From a virus (lineage: Duplodnaviria; Caudoviricetes), in IMG/VR virus record IMGVR_UViG_3300027728_001630, positions 1 to 53,565 of that record: 53,565 nucleotides of DNA; one strand, given 5' to 3'. Below, in pieces: positions 20,901-45,700 of this stretch (positions within the stretch are counted from its first letter, which is position 1; every line of letters starts with the position of its first letter). The translations under genes were made by a program, and so were the position numbers. The notes under the pieces were generated by a model, which saw only the letters and a program-made list of their open reading frames with translations, was not told the origin of the DNA and ran no database searches.

Positions 20901-20905
20901 GGTCC

Positions 20906-23900: not shown

Positions 23901-24394
23901 GCCAAGCGATGGTCCAGCAGATGGATCCGATCAAATCGTTCCTCAACCCATCTCCGCCAAGTAGCATGAATGGGTTCGGGTTCAATGGTGCTAACCCGCC
24001 AGCAAAGCCAGCGGCCGCCGCGCCAGCAAAGCCAGCGGCCGCCGCTCCGGCGAAAGAGCCGACGACCTGGATGGGCAGCATGAGCGGGTTCGGGTTCAAT
24101 GGTGACAACCCGCCAGCAAAGCAGGCGAAGGCGCCAGCAGGACCAGCCCAACCCGTGCAAGGCATCGGGAGCGCGCCTGCTGTTGTGCCAAGCGACGGCC
24201 GCCGTCCGGCGATCGCCAATCAGCCAATGGCAGGCGCAACGCCAACGATCAAGGATGTGGAGTGGCTGTTGCAGAACCCGGCCGCGCGTGCTGCTGGCTT
24301 TGATAAGGGGTTCGGCCCTGGATCGTCAAAGGCGCTGATGGAGTTCCTGCAGAAGAACGGCCCAGCCATGGGGCTAGGACAGCAGGGGCGGTGA
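20906..24394 (+). CDS. internal virion protein with M15 peptidase and 3D-type lytic domains
   Basis: SGHR...Q..LW, PPGGSSHQSGEAVD, EDWH (M15); SAYSP...DTGG...RFDV (3D); GAGGT RBS before ATG 20906. Confidence 0.8.
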   Translation: MARIPDQNAIADHRWQDTRKMETYDASAAQAPGKAQAALGLSIANLGKSLGGLLAAAGKEDEKRQEYETTVKFLDFDLKQKERLADAERNIHPEGDGFRESYVKAFDADAREWFKGVPEAKKGEYDVKLRRMATEREWQARNIETKQRDNYHIADVQGGLDGELKILDKDPDRLRDSIGRGMVRIESSRLPVNRKEEIKKEFATSAEKRHIESRLQRGDDPDEVLRDIRTYPTRPPDGVRYDDGPQGGGGPVEKDPKAYLQSRLAPGYEKRTSDIDNLHPVMTDRLAALTAAAQEAGHDVRIISGHRDAGRQAVLWDNALKKYGSASEARKHVAPPGGSSHQSGEAVDLQYGDRGAGLGGKRTAAVEWVHSNAKKFGLNFPLDHEDWHIEPVEARQGGKRYGGNYDTSKTYWQGGSRPSPAGGGNEITPKLSAYSPQKPGSDIAKMEGGYAAARKGPDGKAEVRTLDDVASGRSQYITLAGNPNQYGKKYTIPEITFIGPDGKEQTLKNVQGVVHDTGGRFKTAAADRFDVPVARDIGDKEMASQPFLKSGVKFIPDDGKAVAQSPPLEQRGMTAGMRPPAQANAQVADASGKMSDGVVSEINSRGQVSTILDGIDGDQPLSTVPADTRAKLMAILPKDAEKQFTMPDGTKASAMDVVTVGQIKKAFAAPAEQARDAAAVAGSVQRDDHGDGRPDSGPRYSDNAPYRWLSNKDRELMAGKAVIAQREITIKAGEDEAQRIAQSGQGKVYEDGSTYLEKAQRVLTRNQFEKQKAKIEKAQWQFNVLSPLPNMSEAERARHLESVGEQIEATKFDPGYADRSKVYEAAVKTAEKMNELLGKDAAAAMAGSEEVKSVIAQIKGAKGKTMAVGTGSDGQPSVTQETIKMSANEARVALVEARLAAQERIFGDARDPRTRIITKAEALQLLPIGRLSDMDEKELLDVLKEGAARADRAYGKYSREAFDDAVKLLITTKTGKDEAAGVLQKMVRNEPLSAMDMQRQAMVQQMDPIKSFLNPSPPSSMNGFGFNGANPPAKPAAAAPAKPAAAAPAKEPTTWMGSMSGFGFNGDNPPAKQAKAPAGPAQPVQGIGSAPAVVPSDGRRPAIANQPMAGATPTIKDVEWLLQNPAARAAGFDKGFGPGSSKALMEFLQKNGPAMGLGQQGR
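23963..24122 (+). repeat. intragenic duplication (SMxGFGFNGxNPPAK x2; PAKPAAAA x2)
   Basis: Repeated at both DNA and protein level. Confidence 0.8.
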
Positions 24395-24750: not shown

Positions 24751-27700
24751 ATGACGTCAACGACCGACAGCATGGACGAAATGCCCCCGTCGTTCCGCGA
24801 TGCGGAGCCTGCTGCCGATCAAGGACAATTCTCGACGCCGTCAGTGGTCTCGACGACGGGCGACGACGGCACGCCGCCGTCGCTTGCTGGTGCTGCACCC
24901 GGTCCAAGCGGAGCAAGCGCACCGAATTTCTTTTCCCCGACGGTCGAGTCCGCCGCACCGAATTTCTTTTCCCCGACGTTCGAGTCCGCAAAGGCGGACG
25001 GGTCGCTGGACGACGTCATCTACTCCAAGCTGATCCAGGCCGATACGGACCGGGTTACCAAAGGCGAGCGCCTAATTGACGGGCTGTTTGGTTACTTTGG
25101 TGTTGCCGACCCCAGTCGGCAGGCTGAGATCATCGCAGGCAAGGAGGCCGAGCTAAAGGCGATGTCCACTATGGACATGCTAGGTCTCATCCCAAGTCCA
25201 GCGCGCTTGCTGTACGGCATCGCCACGTCCGGCAGCACCAAGCCGATCCCGGAAGCCCTGGCCGAGGTGCTCGCTAGCCAGATGGGCGGGACGCTGGCGG
25301 CCTCCCGCAAGAAAACGTCCGACATCATCACGGCGGCGCGGAAGAACCCCGAGCGTGGCATCACAGACGACACGGTCTTCGGTGTTGCCCGTGCGGCGGC
25401 CGATGCCGGCATCCAGTCCGTTGTCGACATTCCCGTGTCGGTCGTCGAGGGCATTGGCATCGGTGCGTCGGTTGCTGGCTGGTCATTCGGCGCTGCCGAC
25501 CGGGTTGAAGACAATTCGGTCCAGGCCGTCGCCCGATGGGCGCGCGCTCAGGCCAAGGCGGCATTCCCCGGCGATCCGCTTCGCCAGGAAGACTTTGCCG
25601 TCATGCTGGCGCAAGGCGTCGGCTCCACGGCCGGGTTCTATGGTGTCCACGCCGGCGCTATGGCAGCCGGACTGAAGACACTGCCGGCGATGCTGGTAAC
25701 GGGCACGATCGGCGGCTTGGCAACGTCACCGCAGACCTACAACGATGCACTGAAGTCGCGCAAAGAGGGGCGCGAGGTGTCGGAACTGGCTCTTGCCTTA
25801 GCCTACGGAGGTGGCCTTGCTCTCGGCGGGGCCGAGGCATTGCCGATAGCGTTCAACATTCCACTCCCTGCTGTTGCCAAAAGCCGGGTGATGGCCTTGC
25901 TCCAAACCGTCGGCCGTGAAGCGGCCGAGGAAGGCGCGCAAGAGTTGGTCCAGTCTGTCGGGCAGGACCTGCTGGCCTATTATCTTCACGACCCAACGCG
26001 GCGCGTCGGCGACGATGCAAGCATGAGCATGCTGGTCGGCGCCCTATCGGGCGGCGGCATCAAGGCGGCAACCTTTGCATCAAAGGCAGCGCGCGACCGC
26101 GCCGTTGAGGAAGCCCGTCAGGCTGGCGGTATGCCACCGGTTGCCACCCAAGCCACACCCCAGGCATCACCCAAGACGCCGGGCAAGGGTGTCATCGACC
26201 TTGAAGCCTTAGGCAATGGCTTCCCCGCACCTCAAACGCCAGCCCCGGCGGCCAGCACGCTCGCCCCCGAAGACCGACTCCAGTTCTCAGACATTCGAGA
26301 CAGCCTGCCGAAGAACGAGCGCGGCGACGGTGACACGGCCTACCTCTACCAACTGACGGAACACCTGACCGGCAAGCGGTACTGGAACACGCTCGACGAC
26401 GCGGAGCGCGAGATTGTGTTTGGCGCATTGCGCCAGCCGGACTTTGGCCGGTCGCTTTTGGCGGTCGATCCCGCTCAGGTCCAGGCCGCAGCAGCCGGTG
26501 CCGTTCCAACCGCCACGAGCGCGGCAACGTCGCAGTCCGCACCGCCCGGCCGTGCCGCATCGCCCGCGCAGACCCCAGCAGCACCGGCCGCCGCAGGCCG
26601 CTCCCCGGCTACCGCGCCAGCGCAAGACCTGTTGCCAGCAGGCAAGGTCCCAGACGCGGCGATGGTCAAGCAAGTTCAGCGGGAAACCGCAGAGGCCGAT
26701 GAAGTCGCTGTTCTCGAGCGTGCGCGCGAAACGTCTGTCCCGCCGCCGCCCGGCGAAGACGGCCAGGTCTACACGCTCGGTTCATCGCAGGAATTCGACC
26801 GGGCGCTGAACGCCGCCAACCGCGAGCTCGCAACCGCTCAAGCAGCGCTTGAGGTTGCCGAAGCCAACATGAACGCGGCCAAACCCGCAAAGAAACGATC
26901 GGCTGGAAACGCGTTCGTTGCGGCCCGAACCGCAGTCGAAGATATAGAGCTTGAAATCGATGGGCTGACCAAGGGCCGCGAGCAAGCAGCCGCTGCCGAG
27001 GCAGCACAGGGCGATATGTTCGACCCTGCAGTTCAGGCTGCGCAAGCGCTCTATGACGCCAAGCGTCCTGCAGCGGATTGGTCGGTCGAGGCGATCGTTG
27101 CCGGCGCTGCAACCGGCCTTGTCCGGATCGATCCCGAGGGTGTGCCGCGGCGCGCGGCTGAGCCCGAAGGGCCAGAATTCGACCCTGTTGCAGCCGAGTT
27201 GGATGATGCTCGCCGCAAGATGAACCAGATCGCACGGGCAGCCGGTGGCAAATTGCGGCCGGCGCGGTTCGGCGAGATGCACGCCGACGGCGATCCGGTT
27301 GCTATTCGCATGCTGGTCGAGGGATTGCGCGCCATGCCCGAGGCTGCACTTACCGAACGGTTCGGCGACGTCGCCCGCCTTACGCGCGCGCGAAACCATG
27401 AAGTGAAGGTCGCCCGGGTTGCTCAAGGACTGATGGCAGCCGAGCTTGCCGCGCAAGACGAGGACTACAAGCTGTCGAGCCAGGCTCGAGACCTGATCGA
27501 GCAGACGGTCGAGGATGCGTTCAAGGCGGTTCCGGTCGAAGAGACGGTCGAGAAGGTGGCAGTCGACACGGGCATTGCGGCTGTGATCGACGAAGTCGAG
27601 AAGGTCACAAAGCACATTGACCCGGTCGATGTGGCCAGGACCGTCGGCGGTATGAAGGTTATCGTCAACTCCCTCAATCTGGACGACCTGCGAGCCCAGT

Positions 27701-30700
27701 ACGACGCAGAGGATGCGGAGAAGGCCCGAAGCCTCCCCGAGGCTGGGACACTGTCGGGCGAGGAAGTCGACAGCATTGTCGATACGTGGACCTACGTTCA
27801 AGAAATGCGCAAGGTTCCAAAACCGCAGAGGCTCAACTCATTCCTGCGCGATCTTGGTGGAATTGTTGACGAAGGTGGCGAGATTAGCGCCATTCTAGGA
27901 AAAAAGCGCAACTCAGGCGGTCTGATCAATGGTAGTGGTATTCCTCTTGATGAAGCGGCTCGCCGCGCATGGGATGCTGGTTTTATCACAACCGCACAGC
28001 GTCCGGGAATCGCGACGTTCCTTGATGTCTTGCGCGACGATTTGAACGACAGCCCTGTCGTCAGGCTGAGCGACATCTCGATCTTTGACGATATTGAAGT
28101 TGCCGTAGAAATGGGCAACGAACTGGCGGAGCTAGGGGTATATGATGCCAAAACCGAAAGCGAAGTCCGCGCGCGTCTCGCCAGCCCCCGAGCCCCTGTC
28201 GCTGCGAGCGAAAGCCGAAGTGGGGCGGTCGGTGGTGCGCAAGGTTCTGGCGAAGCGCTCGGGAACCTCGCCGAAACCTTCGCGGACGCCGCAAAAGTAG
28301 CCAGCCCCGCAACGCTAGTCGTCGAGGCACTATCCCAGCAGATCCCGGTCGAGAGTGTAACGTCGTCGCCCGGTATCACTACGATCGTGATGGGTTTCGA
28401 TCGGCTCAATGATAAGACCGGTGTTCGAGCACCAGACAAGACGGCAGATGAGATCGTATCGGAGGTGCAGCCAGCCACGGCGACAGCGCCAACCTCCAAC
28501 GCCGTCGTCACGCCTGCCGATGGCTGGCGGGACAATCTGGTCAAGACCAGAGCCTACGTGAAAGACCTCGGAATACCTTGGAGCGAAGCCCAGAAGGTAT
28601 GGGGCGACCAACAGGCGCTGTTCGACCTAATCGACCGCACGGCAAATCAGGGCACGTGGAAGGAGCAGTTCCGCGACGCAAACGCCATCATGAAACTCGA
28701 CGATGCAGGCGACGTGATCGGCTCGGTCATGTTCGACGGCAAGTCGTGGGCCGCTCTCGATGCCGAAGGCGGTGTCATTGGTAGGGCGTCAAGCCCAGCC
28801 GGAGCGAAGATACTGGTGAACCTTGCGGCATCGCCAGCGGCTGCCAGCGGCACAGGTCTTAAGCCTGGAACGCCTGAGTTCGACCAAGCCGCTCAGGCGG
28901 CTCGATCCGTTATGGATAGTGCCTCAGTCACGCCAGAAGCCGAGCGCGGCTTCAATCTCGCCATGCAGGCGGCCCGCGCGTTCGCGCTCCGCAACGGTAA
29001 GAAGACCGGCAACGAATACGGTGTGATGGGGTTCCCGAACGGAAAGACCAAAGCCAACAGCGTACCGGCTTCGGCGCGCAAGGCGAGCCAACTGCGGGTG
29101 GACGAAATCACCGCGCCCGAGATGTACCTCGGCGCGCCGAATTCGGTCGACTTCCACCACAACCACCCTGGATCGACATCGTTCAGCCGGGCAGACTACA
29201 CGCACGCAGCCCCGCGCCAGGCGCTCCGCCGCACATGGGTTCACGGCCACAACGGCTCCGAGTATTGGGCAGAGTTCGTTGTCCGAGATCCTGTTATCCT
29301 CGGCCAAGCCTGGGATATTGCCAACGAGGCGACCAAGGGCGCGCTCGGCAGCGACATCGACCTGCCTAAGTTCCGCACGCATCTTGTTGCGCAGATGATG
29401 CGCGAAGGTGGCGTAATCCGGTATGATGCCGTTGCGGGCTTCGAGTATGCGGCGGCAGTCCGCACCGAACAGCGCCTACGCCAAGCCATGGGCGACACAT
29501 GGACTGAAACCGTGGCTGCGATCGCAGCCCTCAAGGAGACCGCCGATGGCGTACTGGATCGACCCGCCCGACCCTCTGGACCCGTTGGAGATGTGGCAGG
29601 GACACCTGGAAGACCTGCTGACGATCCAGGACCCGGACCCGGACGTGCAACAAGCGATCCTCGAAGCGCAGAACCAGATCGCCGAGAAGTCGGGGCAATC
29701 CCAAGCAACGACATCACCGTTGCCAGGACCGACGAGTCCCTCGTCGACGGCCTCATTGCCACTTACGACAAGCCCGTCAGCGATGCCGCCCGAGCCCATG
29801 CCGTCGCCCTTGAACGAGTTGGAACCGACACCAAGTTATTCCACGACCTGAAGGCCAAGATCGGCAAGCTGGTCAAGGCCGACATTGATGCGGTATCGTG
29901 GCTCTACGGCAAGGCCGCGCCGAAGCGCACCAAGGCTCTGCAACTCGACACGATCGAAGCGGAGTTCCAGAAGCGGATCGGCACCGAGGCAGATGCGGCC
30001 ACACTGTCTGGCAACCGTGCGATCGTAACCAGGGACACCGAGGCCAATGCAACTGACCGACGCCGAGCAGAGAGAGATCGACGGGTACGCGCGAGCGAGA
30101 CGCCGGTTCTTGATGGAATCATCCCCCGAGACCTTCAAGGCGATGGAGAAGGCCAAGACGCTGGAGGGTCATCTCGAGGAGACGGCGATCGAGGCGAAGG
30201 AGATGTTCGACCTGACGCACGCTCGGCTGAAAGCGGAAGCGATGAAGGAACAGGAGTTCCAGGCGAGAGTGGAGCTTCTGCAGCAGGCTCCGATCGTGGC
30301 AAGCGAGATCGTGATGAGCGAAGTGATACTGGTGCTGCCATCCTCGCAGCCAAGCGCCAAGCCGATAAAGAGCGAAAAGACCGTCGACGCGAAAACTACC
30401 GGATCACCGAAAACGACCCCATCGGCGAAGGCGGTCCCAAAGAAAAAGTCCGCGCCAACATCGCCGCCATCAGGCTCGTAAAAGAGCTTGCCGAGTCCCC
30501 TGACCGTAAGCCGACGCTGGCCGAAAAGGGCGTGCTGGTCCGCTACGTCGGCTGGGGTGCATTCGCTCAGGACGTGTTCGCCACTCACAAATCAGAGTGG
30601 GCCAAGGAACGCCAGGAACTGATCGACCTCATGACGGCGGAGGAATACGCCAGCGCCAGTGCGTCGACGCTGAATGCCCACTACACATCGCGGAGCGTCA

Positions 30701-33700
30701 TCGATGCGATGTGGGCCGCCGTCGAGCATCTCGGCTTTACCGGTGGCAGGGCGCTGGAGCCATCGTCTGGCGTCGGCCATTTCATCGGCCTGACACCGTC
30801 CAACCTTGCCAAACAGATCGACTGGACCGCCGTCGAACTCGACACGATCACCGGCAAGATCGCGAAGTACCTCTACGAGGGGTCGGACGTTCGCATCTCA
30901 GGGTTCGAGAAAACCAACCTGCCGCCGAATTTCTTCGACCTTGCGATCTCGAACGTCCCGTTCGGCAACTTCACGCTGACCGATCGCAAGTATTCCAAGC
31001 TGCTGATCCACGACTACTTCTTCGCCAAGGGACTCGACCTTGTTCGACCGGGCGGCATCGTCGGGTTCATCACGTCGGCTGGCACGATGGACAAGCCGAG
31101 CACGACGGCCCGTCGTCTGATCGCAAGCAAAGCAGACCTTGTCGGCGCCATCCGACTGCCAGGCGGCCGCACGGGTGCGTTCGCTGGCAATGCCGGCACC
31201 GAAGTAACGACCGACATCATTTTCCTGCGCAAGCGCCTGGAAGGCCAGGAGCAGTCGCCGGAGACCAGGGAGTTCCTGGATAGCGTCACGGTCGAGACGC
31301 CCGACGGGCCGACCAAGATCAACGCCTACTTCGCCAAGCGCCCGGAGATGATGCTAGGCGAGATGCGCCTGACGGGCTCAATGTACCGCGACAAGAGTCC
31401 GGTTCTGGTCGGCTCGACCGACAACATCAAGCAGCGCATTATCGACGCCGCACAGAAAATGCCAGCGAACGTGTTCGTCGAGCGCGGCACCGAGACGGTC
31501 GACATTGGCGACACCAAGGAACTGTCCGATGCAGCGGTCAAGGAAGGCGCGTTCTTCCTCAAGGGCGGCAAGCTGTTCCAGAACGTGCTCGGCCAAGCTG
31601 TTGCGCAGAATGCAACAGGTGCGAAGCTCAAGCGCGCCCGCATGCTTCTCGACATGCGCGACATCGTCAACGACATCATGGCGATCCAGTCGGGCCGGGG
31701 CAAAGGCAAGGCCGAATCCCTGCCGGCGCTGCGCAAGAAATTGAACACGGCCTATGATGCTTTCGTGAAGGCGTTCGGGCCGATCAATAAGAAAACGATC
31801 TCGATCCAGAAGCGCAAGATCAAAGGCGAAGAGCGCGAGATCACGATCGTCAAGTTCCCGAACCTTGCCGATTTCCGCGACGATCCGGACAGCTACAAGG
31901 TCTCGGCGATCGAGAACTATGACGCTGAAAATGACACGGCCACTAAGGCCGCCATCTTCAGCGCCGACATACTGCAGCAATACGTCCGCCCCGACATCAC
32001 CGGGCCCGACGACGCGCTCGCTGTTTCTCTGAACGAGACCGGCAAGGTCGATATCAAGCGCATCGCTGAGATGATGCAGACGTCTGAGGATGAGGCAGCC
32101 GCCAACCTCGGCGAGCGCGTGTTCCTCAATCCCGACGGCGAGAAGCACGAGATCAGCGCGGTCTATCTGTCGGGCGACGTCGTCGGCAAGCTTGAGCAAG
32201 CGACGGCAGCGGCCGAGATCAACCCGGCGTTCCGGCGCAACGTCACGGCACTTGAAGCGGTGCAGCCGACAAAGCTGTCGCGTGTCGACATCCGAACGAC
32301 GTTCGGCGCCCCCTGGATACCAGCCGAAGTGCTGAACGCCTACATCGCGAACGTGCTCAACATCCGCGGCGAAGTGAGGTTTGAGCCGATCACGTCGAGT
32401 TGGATCTGGACGTCCGCCAACGTTTACACGACGCCGTCCGGCCAAGCCGCGTGGGGCACCACAAGGGCCGAAGCGGACGATATCGTCATTGCGGCGCTGA
32501 ACAGCAAGAAAATCACGGTCTACGACAAGGATGAGAAGGGCAACCCGGTTGCTAACCGGACCGCCACCGAAGATGTTGCGGCCAAGGTCCGAGCTGTTTC
32601 CGAGGCATTCACAGGCGACCCAACACTCGGCATGCCCGGCTGGGTCTGGGAAGACGAAGCCCGCGCGCAGATGCTTGAGGACTTATACAACGATAAGTTC
32701 AACCGGCTCGTCACCACGGTCTTTGACGGGTCGCACTTGACGCTGCCAGGATTGGCAACGTCGATCGCACTGCCGAATGGCCAGACAGTGCCGTTCTCAC
32801 TGCGGAAGCACCAGAAAGACGTGATCTGGCGGGCGATCCTGACCGGAAACGTCCTGATGGATCACGCCGTTGGCGCGGGCAAAACCTATGCCATGATCGC
32901 GGCCGGCATGGAGATGAAGCGGCTCGGACTGATCCGCAGGCCTATGTATACCGTGCCGAACCATATGCTTGAGCAGTTCTCGCGCGAGTTCCTCCAGGCC
33001 TACCCCAACGCCAAGATTCTCGTCGCCGAGAAGAAGTATATGGAGGCGAAGAACCGCAAGGCCTTTGCGGCTCGGATTGCTGCCGACAATTGGGACGCGA
33101 TCATCATAACGCACTCAGCCTTCGGCAAACTGCCGATGTCGCCAGAAGCCTATAAGGAGTTCCTGGAGGAACAGAAGGCAGAAATCGTCGAGGCTTGGTT
33201 GACTGCCAAGGGGGAGGCTGAGGATAACGGCAAGCCGTCGCGCGACCCAACCGTCAAGCAGATTGAGCGCAAGAAAAAGGCGATCAAAGCCAAACTCGAT
33301 AAGCTGATGGCGACGGACAAAAAGGATGCCGGCGTCGAGTTTGAAGAGCTGGGTGTCGACTTCCTGATCGTGGACGAGGCCCACTGCTTCCCGAGTGAAA
33401 CGCTGGTCGACACCGACCGGGGCCAAGTCTCTATTGGAGAGATCGTCGAAAACAAACTGCCAGTGCGCGTTCGGAGCGTTGATCACGCTACTGGCGAGAC
33501 TGTTTGGAGGCCTGTCACACAGTTCTGGAAGTACCAGAAACAACAGAAGAAACTTGTTGTAATTCACACGTCGTCAGGGCAAAAGGTTACGTGCACAACG
33601 AACCACCACGTTTTTGTTGACGGACGGGGCTATGTCGAGGCCAAGACTATCGTTGCCGGGGATGCCGTGCGCATCTTGCGGAGTGGCGTTTCGTCCCGCG

Positions 33701-36700
33701 GACTCATGGGCGGCCAAGACCGCGAAGTATTGCAGCACCGCGTGCAAAGCCATGGGTATGCGGAAGCCGCGACCCGACAGAACTTGTCAGATGTGCGGTT
33801 TGACGTTCGCTCAGGAACAGGCAACTTCGCGGACCGTGCAGAAGTTCTGCAGCATAGGGTGTTACCACTCGCACCAAGAGATCAGCGCAGCGCCGATAGT
33901 GTTAGCCTGCGAGACGTGCAGTCGGGAATTCACGCCGGTCGCGCGAGGGCAAGGTGGTCGCGCTCAGAGATTTTGCTCGAAGCCGTGCAAGGGTCTCGCG
34001 CACCGCAAGCCAGTGGCGAAGACGTGCGAGGTTTGTTCCAAGCCGTTCATCTTCCGCAGCAGCGGATCGACCAACAACGCGAAGAGACGGTTCTGCTCAG
34101 GCTCCTGTTCGGCCCGATGGCGGATGGCACAGCCGGGTCGGACCGAGTTGTCGGCGGCTCCAATGCACGCCGCCATGAAGCAGAAATGGAAGACGGACAA
34201 GGAATTCGTACAGCGCGTATCGCAAGCATCATCGGATCGAATGAGGCTGCGGAATCCAATGCGATGCGAAGCCACTCGGTCCCGGATGGCGAAGTCGCTT
34301 TCTGGTCGGACGTTTCTGGCTCGGGGTGGCAACGGACAGACGACCAAGCCACAGATTATGTTGGCCGAGGCGTTGGGCGCGGCACCGATAGAGTTTGCGA
34401 TTTCAACCAAGCCGGTGCGTGGGCAGTTCCCATCGCTCCCGAGCAACTACAAGGTCGACGTGGCCTTGCCGAGCATCCGGCTGGCTATCGAAGTGGACGG
34501 GCTCTCTCATCGCACGAGGAAGTGGAAGTTCCTGGATCGACGGAAAACCGAGATACTGAATGCTCTCGGGTGGTCCGTGTTGAGGTTCTCGAACCAGGAA
34601 GTGCTGACGAACCTGCAAGCTGTTGTCGACCAGATCAATTCGTTTACGACATCGGCGTCGAGGGAGAGCACAACTACTTCGCCGACGGCGTCCTAGTCCA
34701 CAACAGCTATAAAAATCTTGACTACCAGTCGCGTCACTCAAATATCAAAGGAATCGGCGTTAAGGGGTCCGAGCGCGCGACCGACCTTTTCATGAAGATC
34801 CGCCACATCGAGAAGACCAAGCCGGGCCGCTCGACAATCTTTGCCACCGGCACACCCATGTCGCGGTCGATGGCCGAAGTCTACACGATGCAGCGGTATC
34901 TGCAGAGCGCGACGCTGCGCGAGTACGGCATCGAAAAATTCGACACCTGGGCCGCCACGTTCGGCATGGCCGTCACCAAGACAGAGCAGGGCGTAAGCCT
35001 GAAATTGAAGGACGTCACGTCGTTCTCGAAGTTCATCAACGTGCCGGAACTCAGCGCGCTCTACTCGCGCGTGACCAGCAGCGTGACCGCGAACGATCTC
35101 AATCTGGCTCGGCCAGAGCTCAAGGGCGGCCAGCCGCAGGTTGTCCTCGCCGAAATGGATACCGCGCAAAGCCAAGCCACAGACGAACTCATTGCAAAGA
35201 TGGAGGCGCTCAAAGGTCCGGCAGAGAAGGGCGAAGACAACCATCTGTCGCTCTTCACCAAGATGCTGCAGGTCGCGACCGACATCCGTCTCTACGATCC
35301 GAGCGCCGAGTTCAACCCTAACGGCAAGATCGCCAAGGTCGTCGACAACGTCTTCAAGATCTATAGCGAGGGCAAGGCGCCAGCGCTCGGCCAGTTGATC
35401 TTCTCCGACATGGGGCCGCCGAGTTCGCGAAGCAAAGCCGCACCGGCAAAGAAGCCGCGCGACGCTGGCGACGAAAGCGCGATCGACAAGATCCGCGACA
35501 GTCTCATGGTCGATTCCGATGACGATGCCGATGGCGATCCAGACGCCGAAGGCAACGCCGAGATCGAGTCGATGCTTGAAGGCAAGTTCAACCTCTACCA
35601 GGACATCAAGGATCGTCTGGTTGCACGAGGTGTCCCGGCGAAAGAAATCGCCTTCATCCACGACGCCAAGAACGACCAGCAAAAGGCTGAGATGTTCAAG
35701 GCCATGCGGGCTGGCAAGATCCGCATCCTGCTCGGCTCGACAGCCAAGATGGGCGTTGGCACCAACGTCCAGCGACTTCTGACCGCGTTGCACCACATAG
35801 ACGCGCCGTGGAACCCGGCCGACGACGAACAGCGCAACGGTCGTATCCTGCGCCAGGGCAACGAGAACAAGGAAATCTCGATATTCCGCTACGTCACGGA
35901 GGGCTCAGCCGACGCTTACCGGTGGCAGATCCTCGCACGTAAGGCAGAGTTCATCGCGCAGTTCCGAGCCGGCGCGCGCGGATTGCGGGACGCCGAAGAC
36001 ATCGACAGCCCGATCCCGGAAGCCTCTACGCTCAAGGCGCTCGCGACTGGCGATACGCGGATTGTGGAGTTTGCAGAGCTCACCCGCGAATTGCGGGTGA
36101 TGGAAGCCGCCAAGCGCGGCCACGAGCGGACCTACATTTCTGCGGCTCTCTTGCTGGCCGAAACGAGGGCCGAACTCGCTTATCGCGAGAAAGCGCTTGC
36201 CCGGTACGTCCAGGATGCTCCGCTGGTCACCGACCTACGCGGCGATGCGTTCAAGGTCCGGCTCGACACGGGCACTCTCAATGGCGAAGTCACCGAACGC
36301 AAAGCGGCCGGCGAGGCTATCCGTAGCCAAATCCTGGCGGAAATGAAAAACCACAGGGGCCGTGACGCGAACGAAATCGAACTCGGCGCCATGAGCGGCT
36401 TCAAGATGGTCGCCAGCGCTCGCAAGTCGGACAACGGCATTGTCGTCCGGTTCTCTCTGGAAGGGGCGGCAAGCTACCAGCCGGCCGACGGCAACAAGGT
36501 GATCACGGGCGAATCCGATGCCGTCGGCATCGTGAGGCAGTTCGAGAACATCCTGATCGGCATCCCAGGCGTTCGCAAGAACACCGAGAACTTCATTGCA
36601 CGACAGACGGCGGAGCTTCCTCGTCTTGAGAAGCAGTCCGTGGCGACGCCGTTCCCGCGCGCCCTTCAGTTCGCCACGATGAAGGCACGCTACGAGGAAC

Positions 36701-39700
36701 TCGAGGCCGCCCTAAAGCCCAAGCCGCCAGAGGCACCACGTCCGTCTGCTGTATCTGCCATTACGGCTGATGACGATGACGGGTCGATGGCGTCGTTCGT
36801 TGGCGCGACGGATCGCGGCGATGACGTGTTCGCCCGCGCGAGGGCCATGGAAGAGGCCGGGAAGGACCGCTACGCGATCTGGGCCGACACCATGGCGTTC
36901 CGTGGCGCCGACGGCCAATGGCTCCGTGAAGTCGACGACAGCCAGCAACGTGCAGATGCGGCTCCGTCTAAGGGTATTCTGGGGCTTCTGCAGTCTGCCA
37001 TCAATATGGTGGCTGGCACCGGCAGAAACGAGCCAGCGGCCAACCTGGGCGGCGCGGATGGCGTTGGCGGCATTGCCGACGAAGCATCCGACGATCCAGA
37101 GATGCGCGACACCTCGCCAGTCTTCGGCGACGTGCTCGCCCGGCTGACCGAGAAGCGCTTGCGGATGTCCGTCGAAGAGCGCCGCGCGCGGCCGCCGTGG
37201 GAGGACTACGACGTTCCCGAAGCCGACCAAGTCGTGGTCGACGCCACGGAGCGAGCGCAATTCTCTGCGGCAAGCATTCTATTCGAGACCGAAGGGTTCC
37301 AGCGGGTCAGCCCATTGAAGCCCGGCACGGCGCTTGATCCGATCGCGACCGACAAGCCCGGTCCGCTGCTGCGGGAGTTGCAGCAATTCGGGTTCGCCGA
37401 AGTGCAGATGGCGAAATCTGACAGCGCCCGCCGCGCCGCCGCCGACGCCATCAAGGCGCTGCGGCTGATTTCAGAAGTGACAGGGCTTGCCCCGGCGTCT
37501 CTCGGCCGGTCGGCGCCGACCGTCCTAGTGTTTGATACGGCTGCAGACGCCAACGCATCATTCACTTCCGGCCGGCTGTTCGGCATGCAAGTTGCCCCGT
37601 TTGAGATGACAGTTGACGACGGAGTTGGCGGTCGGGCGGTGGTCCATGAGTTCGGGCACATGGTCGACTCGCTCGCGAGTGGCACGCCACAGCGGGAGAT
37701 GACCAGCCGGGCACCCAACTGGCGCAGCCGCGTCAACCTGCTTGCGTCCTACGGCTTGCCGATGCTGGCGACCGGCGGCGTGCCGATCCCTGGCGCCCAT
37801 CTTGCGCTGAAGGCGCTGGATCGCACCGCGTTCAACGGCACCTTGCTTGCTGATCGCGTCCGCACATCCACACCATGGATGTCACCCGGTGTCCGTGCCG
37901 GCTTCGAGAGAGTGCTTGCCGTCCTGGCCGATGGACAGGGGGTGGCGACAGGTGTGCCGGAGGCTGTCACCCGGTGGCGCGAGTCCTATGCCGCTTACAA
38001 GTCGGCGCTTCAGGAGCAGGCTTACGAAACCTCGAGCGCAGAAACGATCATTGAAGATGCCGTCGCGGCCGGCGATCTGTTGCGTGCGCTGGATAACGAC
38101 GTCGAAACGCTCCGTTTTGCTGCGCTCGACGGCGACACGACCACGATCCAGGCCAACAGCCAACGGCTTCAGGATCAATTGCAGGCGGTAGGTGACCGGC
38201 TTGAAGCGGTTACGGCCTCGACGGACGCCGCTCGAGACCTGCTGGTTGAAACCAGCGCGCTGATGACGGTTCTCGAGAAGTCGACGGCAGGCGAAGCGGG
38301 TTCACCCCCGATCGTCGGGACCTACCTTTCCCGTCCCGAGGAACTCTTTGCGCGAGCGTTTGAACATTACGTGGCGCAAAAGGCCATAGAGCGTGGCTAT
38401 CCAAAGGATCAGATAGACGAGATATTCGCCGGTCATGACATTGGTCCTTTTGCGACGCCGGGAACCGACGCTTCAAGGGAGATAATTGGGGGCTTCGAGC
38501 AGATCTTCAAGGCGGTCGTCACCGACGGGCGTGGTCACCTGTACTTTACCGAGCCGCCGGCCGCCGCCGCTGGGCCTGACGCTCAGATGGCAGAGCTACG
38601 CCGCACACTGAAAAGGGAACTGAGAAATGTCCAAGGCCGAGCCAATGGCGCTGCTGTCGGGGTTGATCGCCAGAGCGGAGAAGTTGCCGAAGGGGCGGTC
38701 GGACCGGAAGGCGCTGTTGAGGGACGCGCAGAAGGCGCTCGAGATCGCGCTGTCACCGCCATCGTCAGCGACAAGCAACTTGCCGATGCCTTCCTCTCGG
38801 CCGAACTCAGGCCGGACGCCGTCAAGGTTCGCGCCGTCCAGCAAGGGTTCACGACCCGGGCAACCGGCGACGTCAGCAGCCTCGAAGCCTTCCCCAGCGA
38901 CGGCACCTTCGGACTCCATGCCGCCCTCGCTCCGCCAGCCCCCCGTCAAAGCATAGGCGAGCGGATGCTGGCCTGGGCCGGCCTTGCCCCGGCAAAGGTC
39001 GAGTCCGAGCCCGCACTGCGCATTCGGCAGATGCGGTCGATCCGTATGCCAGACATTGTCGACTGGCACGATCCTGCCGCGTGGGCGACTGCCATGGCGA
39101 CCGGCGTCTACGACGGTCCAGAGCTACTGACGCGGTTCGTCACCGAGTGGCAGGCAGTAAATCAGCCGGTAATGCCACGAGACGTGACAGACCACCGGTT
39201 CTCGATGGCTATGGCCGACGAACTCTCGCGCCTGGGCTACGAGGCTGTCGTCTACCGCGGCGCCGATCGGGCCGAGCGGGTCATGGTGTGGGAGCCGGAG
39301 CGCATTCGATCGGCCGACGATGCGTTCCACCCGGACGCGGTGGGTGAGATCGGGCTCAATGCGTCCGAGCCGTTCGTCGAGCAGGATCTGCGCGATCGGC
39401 TGAACCGGATGCTTCGCGAAGAGGGGATGTCCGAAGAGGAAACGACGACGTTCGACGATGACGGCAGCATGGCGTCGCTCGTGCCGCGCCGGACGAACGC
39501 CGACGGCTACGTTCTGATGCTGCCATACGAGGCAGAGTGGGGCGACAACCGGTTCAATCCGGACGATGCGGCTCGAGCCAAGGCTCGAATGCGCGAGGTG
39601 CTTGATCTCGACCCGGCCACCGCGTCGTGGGACGATCTCGTGTCTGGCTGGCGCGATGCCAACCAGATCATCGCAAACATGATGTATTTCGCGCCGGATA

Positions 39701-42700
39701 ATACGGTCGACACGATCCGGGAACGTGCTGCGACAGTCTCGCCATCGGCCAATATCCCCTATAGCCTTTTGTCTAACTATGCCTACCTAAAACGCCTTGA
39801 AGAACGCCGTAGCATGGCCGAATGGCAAGAAGCGTACGATCGCAACGTATTCTTCAGCGACACCCCACACGCCGAGTGGCAGGACTACATCACGCTGGGC
39901 CGTGCGATAGCCAACAAGTGGATGTCGGTCGGCAACAGGCCACGCCTGAGCGACCTCGTCTTGATGGGCGATGGGCTTGAGCCGAAGGCGCCGAAGAAGC
40001 GCAAGCGCGGCGCGCGCCCGGGCGAAGTCGGCGAGACCATGAAGTCCGGCTTCTACTGGCAGTCGGGCCGCCTGTTGAAAGAAATCCCCGACCCGATCTT
40101 TGAAATGGGCTGGATTGCCGTCAACAACTGGATGCGCCAAGCGGGTGTCTCCGTTGCAGAGACGACGTTCCTTGAGTTTCCCATGGTCGACACGCCGACC
40201 ACACGCGACGAGGTTGCCCGTCTGATCGCAAAGGGCATCTTTGACTTTAAGGTGCGGGTCAACCGGTGGAATCCGGAGCGACCGCGCACGGGTCGTGGGC
40301 ACGAGGACGGCTACGATTACGGCGGCACACGTGCGGCTGACGGGCCGCGCATTCCGGGCCGCGGCATCTATCTCGAAGACCGATTGCTGTTCCCGAAGCG
40401 GTTGCGCGGCGGCGCCGAGTTCTTCTTGGGCCAGTTCGACAGCTACCACTGGAACGAGGAAGGCACTTGGTCATCGCTCCGAGGATCGATCCGCGAAGTT
40501 CCTGGCTTCGGGCAGATGCTCGTGGACGAGAAAAGCCAGACCTTCTTTGAGCAAAGCGCCGCCGCCGAATTCAGCCCTGACCGTGCAAGTAAGTTCACGC
40601 CCGAAACGCCGATCGACGAAACCTACGTGCGCGTCATGGCGCGGCAGATCCTGCTGCGCGCGGTAAAGGAAAACGTCGACAGCATAGGCATCTCTACGAT
40701 CGAAACGACGGCGCGCATCCAGGCCAACGCCAGCGCATTGTTCTTCTACGGGCAGATCGTGCCGAGCTTGCAGAAAGAACTGCGCCGGATCTCTGGTGAT
40801 GGGTCGCTGACGCTACAGCAGATCGAATTGCCGAAGGCCATGGGTGCTCCAAAGCGCGAGAAGCCCTACACGGTCTGGGCGGTTCGTATCCCCGACAACG
40901 TCCGCCGCCAGATCAAGGCGAACGGCCTGCCAATGATGAATCTGGCGCCAACCCCGGCCGGCAATCAAAGGCTGACCGCACAAGCGCAGGCCAAATACCC
41001 AGCGATCGCGGCCGATCTTGAGCAGCGCTTGCGGCGGATGCTTCCCGCCGACGTTGCAGTCGAGTTCGCGCATCGCCTATTTGATAAGCGCGGTCGCGAG
41101 CGGTATGGCCAGTTCCGCCCTGACATCAAGCTGATCGAGGTCGCGCTATCTCGCGGTGCCGACCAAGCCATGATGTCGGGCGCGCACGAGGTGGTTCACG
41201 CCCTTCGTGAGGCTGACGCATTCACCGATGCCGAGTGGGCGTTGCTCGTCGAGCGGGCCCGCAAGGTTGGTGTCGAAACGGCCATGGACCGTGACGGCGT
41301 CACCGAAGCCTACCGTGATATGTTCAAGGCGCGCGCCCGCAAGATGGGCCTTGCCAAGCCAGATGCGGATGCCTTTGTCCAGCGAATGATGGACGAAGAG
41401 CTTGTTGCGCGGCTCGCCGAGCAATACTTCGGGCCGCAGAAGGCTCGCTTCGGCGCGACGATCGATGCGCTGCTGCAGCGGATCGGAGACATCCTCGACG
41501 CTATCGCAGCGGCATTCAACGGCCAAGGCTTCATGTCGGCGGATGCCGTATTCCGGCGGATGGAGCGCGGAGCGCTGGCGAAGCGTGTTCAGCCGACACG
41601 GCCGGGCCCGGCACGCTCGACGCTCAAGACGACCAATGCGGACGACGTGCGCGCTGTCAGCGATCTATGGAGCCAAGCGGCACTGGCTGATGGCGACAAC
41701 CTTTCCAGCATGGAGAAGGCCGAAAACATCGTCGAGGTGCAGGCGTTCCTGCGGTCGTTCAAGCCCGTGCGCCGACCGATCACGGCCAAGCTTGATGTTG
41801 TCGCCGCGAGCGGCGGATCGAACGTCACCTACTTTGTCGTGCCCAAGGGTCGAGACGCATACGACCGGGGTGGTTCCCGGCAAAGCGTTGCTGAGTTCAT
41901 CGTGAAGCCGGCCCGTCGCAAGGCGGTGCGTGGCGTCGAGGTCACGAATGCCAGCGTCACGGCCGACTATCAGCGTCAAGGCATCGCCACCGCCGTCTAC
42001 GACATGATCGCCGAGGATATGGCCTCCGTCGGCGGGCTGTCCCCTACCACGAGCGACAGTCTTGAGCCGGGCGGCAGGGCGTTCTGGTCTGCTCGCGATC
42101 CGAACCTTGAGCTCGACAGCGACGAAGACCGCCGGTTTGCGGCCATGATGTTCGACGCCATGCGTGGCGAGACATCGGCATCGCTCACGGCCCGTCCGAT
42201 CGTGATGTCGCAGAGCGTGGCCGAGGCTGCCGTCGATCTAGGTGCCGGTCGCCGCGTTGCATCCGACCCGCAGCAGATCAATCGTGTTCTGCGTCTTGCC
42301 GCGACGGAAATGAAGGTGGTGCCGGACAACGTCCAGATCGGGGCCGTCCAGCTTCTGACGCCGGTATTCTCGGACGGCAAATTCACCGGTCTGGTCGACG
42401 TGCGCGTCGCCGGGCCCGGCGGCAGATCAGCCGGGACGTTCCGTATTGCTTGGAACGTCATCAGAAATTCCAGCGCTGTCTACCACCGGCAGAGCCGGAC
42501 GATCCTGTTCAACACGATCCCGGGCGTGGTTGAGAACCAAGCTAAGGCCGTCCCCGGTGAGGTTTGGCATGAGTCCGTCCACAGCTTGTGGGACACCGCT
42601 ATTGTCGGCGAGGTCCGCGATCGGTTGCTTGGGCATGCGAAGCTCCTGAAGGTTTTGGACATCGATATCAGCACGTATTCGCAGGCGAAGGGTAGCACAA

Positions 42701-45700
42701 AGCGGCATGCGGCGGGTTCCGTCCTCGAAGCCTACGACGCGCACTATGCGGGCTTGTCGGACAAGGCCGACCGGATAGACCAGGAATATGTGGCGTTCAT
42801 GATGGAGCTCTACAAGGTCGGGTTCTTCACCCGCGCCGAGCTTGAGCCAGTCATTGATCTGGTCGACGCGTTTGAGCAAGGGCTTCTAACGGCACAAGGC
42901 GAGGCGGTGGAGCGCGACCAAGTCATGGCCGCGATCGTCGACGCTGACACCGGCCGTTCCATGCGCCGTGATCTGGATGCGCTCGGGTATTATTCTGGTG
43001 CGCTTGAAGCAGCCAAGGGCCTAAAGCAAGCCAAGGGCACGCCAGAGCAAATGCTGGCCCAGCTTAAAGCAGGCGGTGCCAAACAAAACGAGATTGAGGC
43101 GACAAACCTTGCGCAATTCCTCGACGGCAAGAAGTCCGTCACCCGTGACGAGATCGTCAATCACCTGACTCAGAATAGGGTCGGGGTGAAGGAGGTTGTT
43201 AACAAGCGCGGAGAAACGCCGTCCGGTGCCCGTGGCTTTCGCGACGATACCGGAAACACATTCGACAAGGATCAAACCGGCTTCACGCTGTTTCCATTGA
43301 CCGAGAAGGTCAAGGCGTCGGTGCGTGACGATGGCCTGCCCATGTTCGCGCTCGCGGGCAATGGCGACCAGAACGCCGAACAGCCCGACATGACGCCGAC
43401 AACCCGTCCATTCGCAATGGAAGGATACGAGGGCAGCGTCACCACGACACCCAAGCAGGACGGGCTTCGCACGCGCGTCTACACCGTGTCGACTGATGGT
43501 CAGATGCAGGCACGCATCGCGCTATCCGAGCGCGAGCCGAACCTGTGGGAGATCATCGGCGTTCGTCTCGACAAGGCCCAGCACGGCAAGGGGCTCGCTC
43601 TGCGGGCTATCGAAGCCATTGAGCGCGACGCCGGCGCGCAGGTGTCGGCTGACGGTATCATCACGCCAGAGACATACCAGCAGATCGCGGCTGTGGCGCC
43701 GGATTCGGTGCGGTTCCATGTCCGGACCGGTGCCGCGTTCGACGGTCTCTACATGCCCCATCGTGCAATCGAGATGATGCGAAATGCGGCGGCAGATGCT
43801 GCCGTGGCATCACCAACCGATGACGCTGCTCGAGATCGTGAAGCGCTTCGTGGATCGGAAGCCACCGTTCCGGATGACGCCTACCGGGTTGATCGGATCA
43901 TCGCCGGTATGGAACGCCAAGGCCTCGACATGAGTCCAGGAGCTCGCAAGGCGCGGGCCGAAGAGATGGGGTTTGATACTGCTACAACTTGGTATCATGG
44001 TACGGCTGCAAAGTTCGATGCCTTTGACCCTGCTATCGGATCGACGCCCGGCATTTGGATGACCTTAAACAAAAAGGCCGCAAGCGGCTTTGGTGATGTA
44101 GGGTCGTATTTTATCAAGGCCCAAAAGTTTGGCTCTATGCAAGACTTCATGGCTGCGCGCGTGGGAGTTGCCAAGACCGGACTTGAGCCGGGGTCGCGCG
44201 AATTTTCGCAAGCAGTGGTTGACCGGCTTGTCTCCCAAGGTTTTGACGGCATCCGCGATGCGAAGTTTAAAGGCGCTGGCGGGGTTGGCGAAGACGTCGT
44301 TATGATGTTGCGGCCTGAAAACATCCGCTCCGTCAACGCTGACTTCGACCCGAACGAGACCGACAGCGACAACATCCTGGCGGCGCTCGCCCCGATCCAG
44401 CAGCCGCCCGTCCCTCGCCCCCGGCCGCCACAACTCCCACAACTCGGCGACACCACAAAGTCAGACACCCAAGCACCAGAGCAAGGGCTGTCCGACCTGA
44501 TCGCCATGCTCAAGGAAGCCATCGGCATCGAAGAGCGCCGCGGCCGCCTCAACCCAGGCCTCAAGGCCGCCATGGGCCGGCTCGGGGCCAAGCTATACGG
44601 CCAGTTCTCGCGCCGCACCGGTATCGTTCGCACGGCCATACCGAACGACATCCAGACGCTTGCCCATCAAGGCGGTCACGCGCTCGAGACCAACGCCGAA
44701 CTCGCGCCCTACATCGAAGCGTTGAAGCAGGTTCACTTCGCCGAACTTGTCCCGCTCGCAACCCCTGGCAACGATCAACTCTCCGAGGGCTGGGCAGAGT
44801 TCTTCCGGCTCTATGTGATCGACCCGACGACAGCGCGGACCATGGCACCCGGCATCACGCGGGAATTCCGTAACATGCTGGAGAAGAACCGCCCAGAAAT
44901 GCTGACCGCGCTCGATGCCGTGCAGGTCGGATACGCTGCGCTCCAGGCGGCGTCACCCGCTGGCGTGGTCAAATCTCGCGTGCAATCGACCGTTCGCCCG
45001 ACGACCAAGATCGGCAAGGCGGCGGAAGAGATCAGAGAAAAGGGCTTCCGGGGTGCAACCAGCGACTGGCTGTACCAGGCGACGACCGGGCTGCTCGACG
45101 ATAAAAACCCGCTCAAGGTGGCGGTTAAGTTCCTCATTGAGGAGGCAACTCGCAACCTCGGCAGCCAGATCAAGGCCGGCGAGCAGGTCGTTATCAAGGC
45201 GCTGAACGACCCCTACAAGCTCGCTCGGATGATGGAGCACGCCCGTGTGCATGCGACCGCGATCCTGCGGCGTGGTGTGGTCGGCAAGGGTCGGACGCTG
45301 CCGAGAGGACCATCCATGCAGGATGTCCTCACCGAAGCTTTCGGCGGCGCGGGCAACGCCCAATGGAACGAGGATATGGCCCAGACGTTCGGGGCGTTCC
45401 TCGTCTCCCGCCGTATGAACGCCGAGTGGGACCGCTTCGACAACGGCTTCTTGGACGCTCCGCCCGACCACCTCATCAGCCGGCAGGCATGGGCAAATGC
45501 GCAGAATGACCTTGAGAAAGCCTACCCGCAGTTCCGCAAGGCGGCGCGGATGCTCGACCAGTTCAATGCCAACCTGCTCGAGCTGAAGTTCCAGAACGGG
45601 TTCCTGACGCAGGACCAATACGACGACTTCCGGTTCCGCGACGGGTACGTGCCGCTGCAGCGCATCATGGATCAAGACGGACCGTCGTCGCTGAACGCCA

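Follow-up and report, generated by a model that had tools for sequence, protein, structure and literature searches.

Overall architecture of the locus

The stretch of DNA analysed here (the window) comprises the 53,565 nucleotides of the IMG/VR virus record IMGVR_UViG_3300027728_001630, which is classed as a provirus and as 86% complete. On its plus strand, an open reading frame (ORF) of 7867 amino acids (24751–48354), termed the host ORF, encodes a phage polyvalent protein with a superfamily 2 (SF2)/SNF2-like helicase module. An intein of 440 residues (33385–34704) interrupts helicase motif II of this protein. A further ORF of 354 amino acids (33632–34696), read from the same strand in the +1 frame, lies wholly within the intein and encodes a predicted nuclease. 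In textbook inteins, the homing endonuclease is an in-frame domain. The element in the window is read here, with a probability of roughly 85%, as a mobile intein composed of two overlapping genes, a splicing unit in the host frame and a homing nuclease gene in the +1 frame.

The assignment of the host ORF is based on domain matches in the exteins, the segments on either side of the intein. The exteins match the Pfam families ResIII (E value 5.6e-5), Helicase_C (2.7e-7), LPD38 (2.4e-20), and ART-PolyVal (7e-8). Further matches of the host ORF are to LPD1, LPD23, and Acetyltransf_1 (GNAT); those to LPD1 and LPD23 have E values below 1e-4, yet their scores lie under the Pfam cutoffs. The host ORF thus displays what characterizes a polyvalent protein, namely a giant multi-domain sequence, LPD-type domains combined with enzymatic modules, and a phage context.

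The intein in the host frame

The N-extein ends with the codons GAC GAG GCC CAC (33373–33384), which specify the DEAH sequence of helicase motif II, or Walker B. The C-extein resumes with AGC TAT AAA AAT CTT (34705–34719), encoding SYKNL, the serine of which is the +1 nucleophile. The host-frame translation accordingly reads LIVDEAH up to the first junction, continues from CFPSETLV through TTNHHVFV to VYDIGVEGEHNYFADGVLVHN, and passes into SYKNL at the second junction.

The intein is sequentially composed of an N-lobe (residues 1–100; 33385–33684), a linker (residues 101–390; 33685–34554), and a C-lobe (residues 391–440; 34555–34704). The N-lobe contains block A (CFPSETLV, 33385–33408) and block B (TTNHHVFV, 33595–33618). 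The C-lobe contains the strand SRVVRVEVLEPGS, block F (VYDIGVEGEHNYFA, 34642–34683), and block G (GVLVHN, 34687–34704). Class-1 inteins possess Cys or Ser at position 1, a TxxH motif in block B, a terminal His-Asn pair, and Cys, Ser, or Thr at the +1 position. The corresponding catalytic residues are all present in the window, as C1, TTNHH in block B, and VHN followed by Ser.

A preliminary description of the window, made without database searches, had placed a 440-residue intein with intact splicing blocks between DEAH and Ser. Its coordinates are right. The host frame matches the Pfam families Intein_splicing (6.9e-15; 55.6 bits against a cutoff of 35.8) and Hint (3.2e-8), as well as TIGR01445 for the intein N terminus (6e-12) and TIGR01443 for the C terminus (9.1e-8), both above their cutoffs.

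An AlphaFold model of the host-frame intein was built with 65 aligned relatives. Residues 1–100 are modeled as a β-rich lobe with a pLDDT (predicted local distance difference test) score of 94–98. The C-lobe is modeled with strands at residues 391–402 and 419–439, and its pLDDT reaches 97 in blocks 391–400 and 421–440. The two lobes are predicted to form together the Hint fold of a class-1 intein. Residues 104–385 have mostly pLDDT values below 50, with a single predicted helix at residues 224–242.

The linker is a translated passenger of the nuclease gene and is predicted to be disordered. It is rich in Arg, Gly, Ala, and Ser and is weakly conserved in the alignment of 65 inteins, in which the N-lobe is conserved. 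The preliminary description had taken the centre of the intein for filler. This holds for the linker of about 290 residues, but not for residues 394–406, which form a conserved intein strand. A reading of the host-frame middle as a separate domain was considered and rejected: it is less conserved than the nuclease frame, its substitutions fall mostly on host-frame first positions, and its pLDDT is below 50.

The +1-frame nuclease ORF

The nuclease ORF runs from ATG 33632, just past block B, to the TAG at 34694–34696, within block G. A TTG at 33614 is an alternative start and would give a 360-residue form. The +1 protein was initially described as carrying four Cys-rich zinc repeats and a DUF559/Vsr-like nuclease domain, and profile matches bear this out. 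DUF559 is matched with an E value of 1.1e-13 (residues 277–343 of the 360-residue form), zf-FCS with 4.7e-7 in three stretches, and DUF2256 with 8.7e-4. A family search of both frames therefore finds the intein models in the host frame and DUF559 and zf-FCS in the +1 frame. No NUMOD module was matched in the +1 protein by Pfam at E ≤1.

Four zinc-ribbon units of the form CxxC...CxxxC occupy 33668–33745, 33785–33862, 33908–33988, and 34025–34108, and are presumed to be DNA-binding modules. The window copy is an outlier in this respect, most relatives having fewer ribbons. The Vsr-like/DUF559 catalytic core of EDxHD type follows at 34442–34642 and includes the motifs IEVDGLSH (34487–34510) and KFLDRRK (34526–34546). 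In an alignment of 24 sequences, designated A1, the putative catalytic residues E287, D289, H293, and D302 are invariant, as are C132, C135, C155, and C159, and also L312, G313, W314, V316, R318, and N321. The window nuclease retains every invariant catalytic and zinc-binding residue.

An AlphaFold model of the +1 protein, with A1 as alignment, has a mean pLDDT of 82.1 and values of at least 90 in 189 of 354 residues. The top match of this model in the PDB by Foldseek is 3r3p, the catalytic domain of I-Bth0305I (E value 2.5e-3, probability 1.00, template modelling (TM) score 0.64–0.65 normalised on the target). Further matches are the DUF559 protein 3hrl (TM score 0.68) and then Vsr itself (1vsr, E value 0.05). 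A profile of A1 searched against PDB sequences likewise retrieves 3hrl (1.7e-10) and 3r3p (0.004). The equivalence of the E/D/H/D residues to those of I-Bth0305I is taken from the profile alignment rather than from a residue-by-residue comparison of structures. By predicted fold and catalytic residues, the +1 ORF encodes a putative zinc-ribbon nuclease of the Vsr-like, EDxHD type.

Two frames over the same bases

Both frames had been reported to stay open for more than 1 kb, and the measured lengths agree. No off-frame open stretch in the 23.6-kb host ORF is longer than the +1 stretch (33560–34694, 1134 nucleotides), and the next in the +1 frame has 516 nucleotides. Over the 355 codons of the nuclease gene, the host frame contains no stop. 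Synonymous shuffling of the nuclease ORF produced a mean of 9.70 host-frame stops, and none of 20,000 replicates was stop-free. Two other null models, shuffling of the codon order (mean 9.39 stops) and resampling by host codon usage (mean 9.05), likewise yielded no stop-free replicate among 20,000 each. A nuclease domain displaced from the host frame would leave about nine stops there; the stop-free host frame therefore argues against a displaced in-frame domain.

Base composition also distinguishes the two frames. The third-position guanine–cytosine (GC) content of the linker is 0.72 in the nuclease frame and 0.54 in the host frame. The exteins have values of 0.71–0.75, which is the coding mark of this phage and is matched in the linker by the nuclease frame.

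The two coding sequences share constrained bases at both borders. At the N-terminal border, the first zinc knuckle (from 33668) overlaps the N-lobe segment GDAVRIL (33658–33678). At the C-terminal border, a segment of the plus strand at 34564–34603 specifies two conserved elements from the same bases. In the host frame it encodes the conserved intein strand SRVVRVEVLEPGS (residues 394–406; 34564–34602), for which alignment A3 has the consensus RVESVEILExGS. In the +1 frame it encodes the conserved nuclease motif LGWSVLRFSNQEV (34565–34603). Where both frames are constrained in this way, the two genes would be bound to a single frame relation.

The sequence of the region was compared with Logan contigs of four sequencing runs over 33300–34800. 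Long pieces of these contigs are without differences or gaps. Contigs of runs X1 and X11, possibly the source sample, span the whole stretch, and those of X14 and X16 cover parts only. In X14, one low-depth record of 264 nucleotides has three differing letters and loose ends at 34568–34603.

Relatives and their layout

Relatives of the nuclease are numerous. A word-indexed protein collection contains 259 homologues of 194–620 residues at E ≤1e-3, many of them on contigs of about 1 kb. In a library of representatives at 50% identity, 4,490 matches were found at E ≤1e-3, and tightening the cutoff to 1e-10 or 1e-30 left 1,126 or 100, respectively. The best 150 of the 4,490 are all 98–434 residues long, and so none of these 150 is a long in-frame fusion. 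A search for in-frame fusions among longer proteins returned five weak matches only, although such a blank is weak evidence. Several homologues end in a Thr/Ser-rich tail of the window type, which is the +1 reading of blocks F and G. The closest nuclease relative found is 59% identical (L005, P0003).

Searches with single sequences were less productive. The intein DNA had no match in the phage collection by distant blastn, and the single nuclease protein retrieved no confirmed relative from viral contigs, for which alignment A1 was needed. Within the window's own record, the nuclease found only itself.

A DNA-level survey with A1 confirmed 288 viral and 245 genome stretches, of which the best 80 of each kind were analysed. 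The three forward frames of each locus were searched by jackhmmer with the N-part (100 residues) and C-part (31 residues) of the window intein and with the nuclease. Among the resulting 161 sequences (160 loci and the window), 117 have the nuclease in the +1 frame relative to both intein halves and a stop-free host frame. Three have the same +1/+1 relation with host-frame stops (L024, 1 stop; L121, 23; L129, 19), one has its C-half in another frame (L046, 3 stops), and two are cut by the contig end. The remaining 38 have no intein match and are mostly weak DUF559-only matches; six were inspected, of which five proved to be complete free-standing genes and the sixth a truncated fragment. The nuclease is in frame with the intein in none of the 161 surveyed sequences.

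By their titles, the genome records with relatives are assigned to Chloroflexota, Proteobacteria, Cyanobacteria, Bacteroidota, Acidobacteriota, Bacillota, and others, and include one Thermococci bin. The +1 overlap is the norm of the family and not an accident of one phage.

Selection on both frames

Removal of identical copies left 107 distinct +1/+1 loci, with a GC content of 0.28–0.65. The host frame is stop-free inside the nuclease gene in 104 of them. Synonymous shuffles of these 104 loci predict 1,140 stops in total (median per locus 11.4 over all 107), and the third frame contains a median of 20 stops.

The way in which stops are avoided can be read from the codons. At a +1 offset, a host-frame stop requires a nuclease codon that ends in T and is followed by AA, AG, or GA. 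Before these dinucleotides, 1,876 pyrimidine-ending (NNY) codons have C as their last base and 43 have T, and the instances of T are confined to the three loci with stops. Elsewhere, NNY codons end more often in T (4,578) than in C (2,746). Because a change from NNT to NNC is always synonymous, an open host frame costs the nuclease nothing, and this free removal of stops would explain the stability of the layout. Five complete free-standing relatives serve as a natural control and contain 48, 24, 17, 2, and 39 stops in the corresponding frame.

Substitutions were counted in 13 independent pairs with 70–98% nucleotide identity. Differences at nuclease codon positions 1, 2, and 3 number 456, 397, and 1,065, respectively, and the amino acid identity of the nuclease frame (0.79) exceeds that of the host frame (0.59). 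This pattern indicates that the nuclease is under ordinary purifying selection and that the host-frame middle is merely kept open. Selection therefore acts on both frames, in keeping with the proposal in the preliminary description of a nuclease gene separate from the intein frame.

Insertion sites and intein-free alleles

The inteins of 103 distinct contiguous relatives are 284–500 residues long, with a median of 362. Insertion occurs between DE and xH of the DExH motif in 73, and after DExH, as in the window, in 11. It follows DE with another continuation in nine and lies about one residue off in ten. Cys1 is present in all 103. At the +1 position, 96 have Cys and seven have Ser, as does the window. 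The last two intein residues are SN in 54, HN in 48, and GN in one, where His-Asn is the usual pair. Among 102 N-exteins scanned, 56 match ResIII, 44 SNF2-rel_dom, 30 DEAD, and about 11 families of the AAA/RuvB_N/DNA_pol3_delta2 type.

Intein-free alleles are present in related phage polyvalent proteins. Two of these, L002 and L003, whose N-exteins are 44% identical to that of the window, read VDEAD-LFKNL at the site, and a third reads DEGHNYRNSYK (L004). The window has DEAH before and SYKNL after the intein at the matching site. The intein is accordingly inserted precisely in a conserved motif for which intein-free homologues exist.

A second match to the intein N-domain occurs about 1.3–1.6 kb from the intein with the +1 nuclease in the host helicase genes of ten of the surveyed loci, upstream in L018, L025, L026, L033, L034, L046, L079, and L101 and downstream in L022 and L037. 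A LAGLIDADG_3 match was obtained in 8 of 102 N-extein pieces. These observations indicate that canonical inteins and inteins with an out-of-frame nuclease can share one gene.

The wider distribution invites a broader interpretation, which we judge slightly better supported than not. The window intein would belong to an undescribed, large, and old clade of inteins at the Walker B/DExH motif of SF2 helicases and AAA+ clamp-loader-type ATPases, always with a zinc-ribbon Vsr-like nuclease in the +1 frame. The overlap would be a stable end state, locked by the dual-motif stretch and cheaply maintained through NNT to NNC changes.

Proposed mechanism and alternative readings

The two overlapping genes suggest the following sequence of events. 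The host protein would be translated straight through as a 7867-residue polyvalent protein that includes the intein. The N-lobe (residues 1–100) and the C-lobe (residues 391–440) of the Hint fold would dock across the disordered passenger of about 290 residues and splice. Excision would rejoin DEAH and SYKN and so restore helicase motif II. The nuclease would most likely be produced separately from the giant host protein, with translation starting internally at ATG 33632. Alleles lacking the intein would then be cleaved by it at the site that codes for DExH, and repair would copy the whole unit into them. The proposed cutting of empty alleles is modeled on the action of I-Bth0305I for its intron, as far as that is covered in the accessible part of the report (PMC3239194). 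Homing might in this way be uncoupled from synthesis of the host protein.

Several observations weigh against the reading of the element as a mobile intein of two overlapping genes. ATG 33632 is preceded by only a weak Shine–Dalgarno-like GGGG. A simple scan of the relatives found a Shine–Dalgarno-like motif before the first ATG in 38 of 104 loci and none in 66. Over 33000–35000, a scan for σ70-like promoters found none (0.7 expected), with two terminator-like sites (1.9 expected), and the predicted RNA fold of the start region (33560–33680) is not unusual, with a z score of 0.66. The contig check rests on assemblies, not on raw reads. The survey of best-80 selections may under-sample rarer layouts, and recent mobility of the window copy cannot be judged because the closest relative found is only 59% identical. 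Two proteins depart from the common layout. P0123, a UvrD-like helicase, contains a distant in-frame DUF559 intein, with DUF559 at residues 420–483 inside an Intein_splicing match at 241–532 that scores 32.2 bits, under the Pfam cutoff of 35.8. The gene call of P0026 (344 residues, NCBI source) comprises an extein start (…ADE followed by CFPYGTKV…) and blocks A and B in frame with a nuclease that is without the first zinc ribbons and has a stop directly after it. P0026 may have arisen through an indel, represent a decaying copy, or result from misassembly.

Among other readings of the locus, one accepts the layout as real but holds that the nuclease of the window is no longer an active homing enzyme, being fixed, decaying, or co-opted, and that the intein persists because its precise loss is difficult. 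The homing cycle predicts decay after fixation. Such decay is discussed in the accessible part of a recent preprint (bioRxiv 10.1101/2025.01.02.630785). The outlying set of four zinc ribbons would fit this reading, as would the fact that no relative above 59% identity was found. We nevertheless regard loss of activity as unlikely. The ORF is intact over 354 codons with all invariant catalytic and zinc-binding residues kept, its third-position GC content fits the coding bias of the phage, and the family is under purifying selection.

A second reading invokes programmed +1 ribosomal frameshifting after block B, by which the nuclease would be fused to the N-extein and the intein N-lobe. It would account for the 66 loci that have no Shine–Dalgarno-like motif before the first ATG, for the weak motif in the window, and for the lack of a detected internal promoter at 33000–35000, and the open stretch of the nuclease starts upstream of ATG 33632, at 33563. 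The relatives, however, argue for internal starts and make frameshifting very improbable. Their first ATG is typically 180–310 nucleotides after Cys1 and nearly always a few codons ahead of the first CxxC, and AGGAGG or GGAGG at proper spacing is present in several (for example L064, L084, L101, L111, and L116). The nuclease is a stand-alone ORF in the fractured genes of L121 and L129, free-standing relatives exist, and a nuclease fused to an N-extein of 2,900 residues is implausible.

The weakest reading, an artefact or pseudogene in which an in-frame endonuclease domain was displaced by two frameshift errors or mutations that compensate each other, can point to L046, which has the look of a real shift (its C-half in another frame and three stops), and to the in-frame N-blocks of P0026, but it is scarcely credible for the window given the stop statistics, the gap-free contigs of four runs, the overlaps at both borders, which no single switch point fits, and the layout common to 104 of 107 distinct relatives; the compensating sequencing errors against which the preliminary description had warned are excluded by the same evidence.

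Comparison with known systems

The principle of an out-of-frame intein endonuclease is already in print, and the caution of the preliminary description about novelty was justified, since alternate-frame intein endonucleases have been published for other endonuclease types.

The fractured genes of Dassa et al. 2009 (PMC2677866) consist of the two halves of a split intein with a free-standing gene, Vsr-like or GIY-YIG, between them, and the 3′ end of the nuclease gene overlaps the C-half ORF by 6–69 base pairs. In the parts available, their model mentions only in-frame integration. The window resembles these genes in having a Vsr-like gene between splicing halves, a 3′ overlap with the C-half, a phage-rich setting, and a host protein of DNA metabolism. 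Two surveyed loci, L121 (2841–3818) and L129 (2194–3141), both Flavobacteriaceae-labelled with a GC content of 0.30, are true fractured genes that match this form exactly, and their intein and nuclease are of the same families as those of the window. In both, two consecutive stops occur right after the N-half, and the C-half ORF starts with its own Met. Their host-frame stops accumulate at a random rate (23 against 25.4 expected in L121 and 19 against 21.4 in L129). The window and 104 of 107 relatives differ in being contiguous, with an unbroken host frame and a nuclease gene that is dual-coded over its whole length. Neither a stop after the N-half nor a separate start of the C-half is found in the window, where 33385–34704 contains no host-frame stop. 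The contiguous dual-coded form is not described in the accessible text of Dassa et al. 2009 (PMC2677866).

The EDxHD homing endonucleases, with the prototype I-Bth0305I, were described by Taylor et al. 2011 (PMC3239194). Judging from the accessible part of that paper, the +1 protein shares with I-Bth0305I a predicted Vsr-like fold, the conserved E/D/H/D residues, and an arrangement of N-terminal DNA-binding modules and a C-terminal nuclease. I-Bth0305I is associated with a group I intron and carries NUMOD and helix-turn-helix modules, whereas the window protein is encoded in another frame of an intein and carries zinc ribbons of the zf-FCS kind, one to four of which are present in members of the family.

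Parallels in layout come from two preprints. Gosselin, Arsenault, and Gogarten (bioRxiv 10.1101/2025.01.02.630785) report, in the text available, actinophage inteins whose homing endonucleases are LAGLIDADG or VSR-like enzymes encoded antisense, or endonuclease VII-like enzymes encoded in sense “frame 3”. These non-canonical types are rare there (63 of 784 inteins together), under-annotation is predicted, and invasion of an intein by a free-standing homing endonuclease gene is proposed as their origin. The likeness to the window lies in an endonuclease frame other than the splicing frame and in a host-frame middle without recognisable structure. The VSR-like enzymes of that set are antisense, whereas the window type is sense and +1 and was retrieved at 116 other loci, which come from phages, from many bacterial phyla, and from one archaeal bin.

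Phillips, DeSimone, and Gogarten (bioRxiv 10.64898/2026.09.14.751524) describe, again in the available text, a cyanobacterial dnaX intein with a LAGLIDADG endonuclease in a +2 ORF. It resembles the window in its sense overlapping endonuclease ORF, a host-frame linker predicted by AlphaFold to be disordered, purifying selection in the endonuclease frame only, and a P-loop ATPase gene as host. It differs in its LAGLIDADG family, its +2 offset, and its restriction to one host gene in one phylum. Both preprints from the Gogarten laboratory cite Gorbalenya 1998 in their accessible text. An HNH endonuclease that is out of frame, in a phage methylase insert, is mentioned in the accessible parts of PMC11855218 and PMC12613952.

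The window shows the features that characterize non-canonical inteins with an out-of-frame endonuclease, that is, an overlapping endonuclease ORF, an unstructured host-frame middle, and purifying selection in the endonuclease frame. Within the texts of Dassa et al. 2009 and of the 2025 and 2026 preprints, as far as accessible (supplements and most subscription journals lay outside this scope), no sense-strand +1 form with a Vsr-like zinc-ribbon nuclease was found. Nor do the accessible texts of these three sources contain the breadth of distribution, the strict frame relation, the focus on Walker B, the NNC signature, or the link to fractured genes.

Implications of a dual-coded intein family

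The survey suggests that a whole, widespread lineage of inteins has a separate overlapping nuclease gene as its rule, and the main value of the window is as an entry to this large family, which is conserved and dual-coded. Where the host ORF is long, such nucleases would be hidden by gene callers that do not permit extended overlaps on one strand. The contigs of about 1 kb on which many homologues lie fit a situation in which the nuclease is reported only where the host ORF is truncated, which would point to systematic under-annotation on long contigs.

More than 100 natural replicates of a dual-coding region of about 0.7–1 kb, with a clean selection signature, offer a test bed for models of overlapping genes. 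The occurrence of contiguous inteins, fractured genes, and free-standing homing endonuclease genes in one nuclease family, the first two also sharing an intein family, bears on the origin of split and nuclease-bearing inteins. If the broader clade interpretation is true, fractured genes are a rare derivative of the +1 clade, and an active nuclease gene lies concealed in many inteins whose middle is annotated as unknown or decayed. As tools, the predicted structures suggest that inteins can accommodate a disordered linker of about 290 residues, and modular zinc-ribbon and Vsr-like nucleases may have predictable targets around DExH codons.

Phage context of the host gene

The giant polyvalent gene is located among virion and lysis genes. 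Upstream of it lie a Terminase_6N gene (6740–8431), a Head-tail_con portal gene (9846–11609, E value 9e-64), and a gene for a 1165-residue protein with a VanY peptidase domain (20897–24394). A gene for a Glyco_hydro_19-like protein follows at 51826–52944.

A second long alternate-frame ORF is present in the host gene at 46317–47111, in the +2 frame. It encodes 265 residues within an open stretch of 903 nucleotides. The ORF has no Pfam match at E ≤0.1 and by a rough estimate its length is only marginally unusual; it is taken as a product of chance and not as a gene.

The two exteins together (7,427 residues; 24751–33384 and 34705–48351) contain no cysteine. All six cysteines of the 7867-residue ORF are inside the intein, at residues 2879–3292. 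A cysteine-free giant protein encoded near virion genes may have a role in packaging and ejection.

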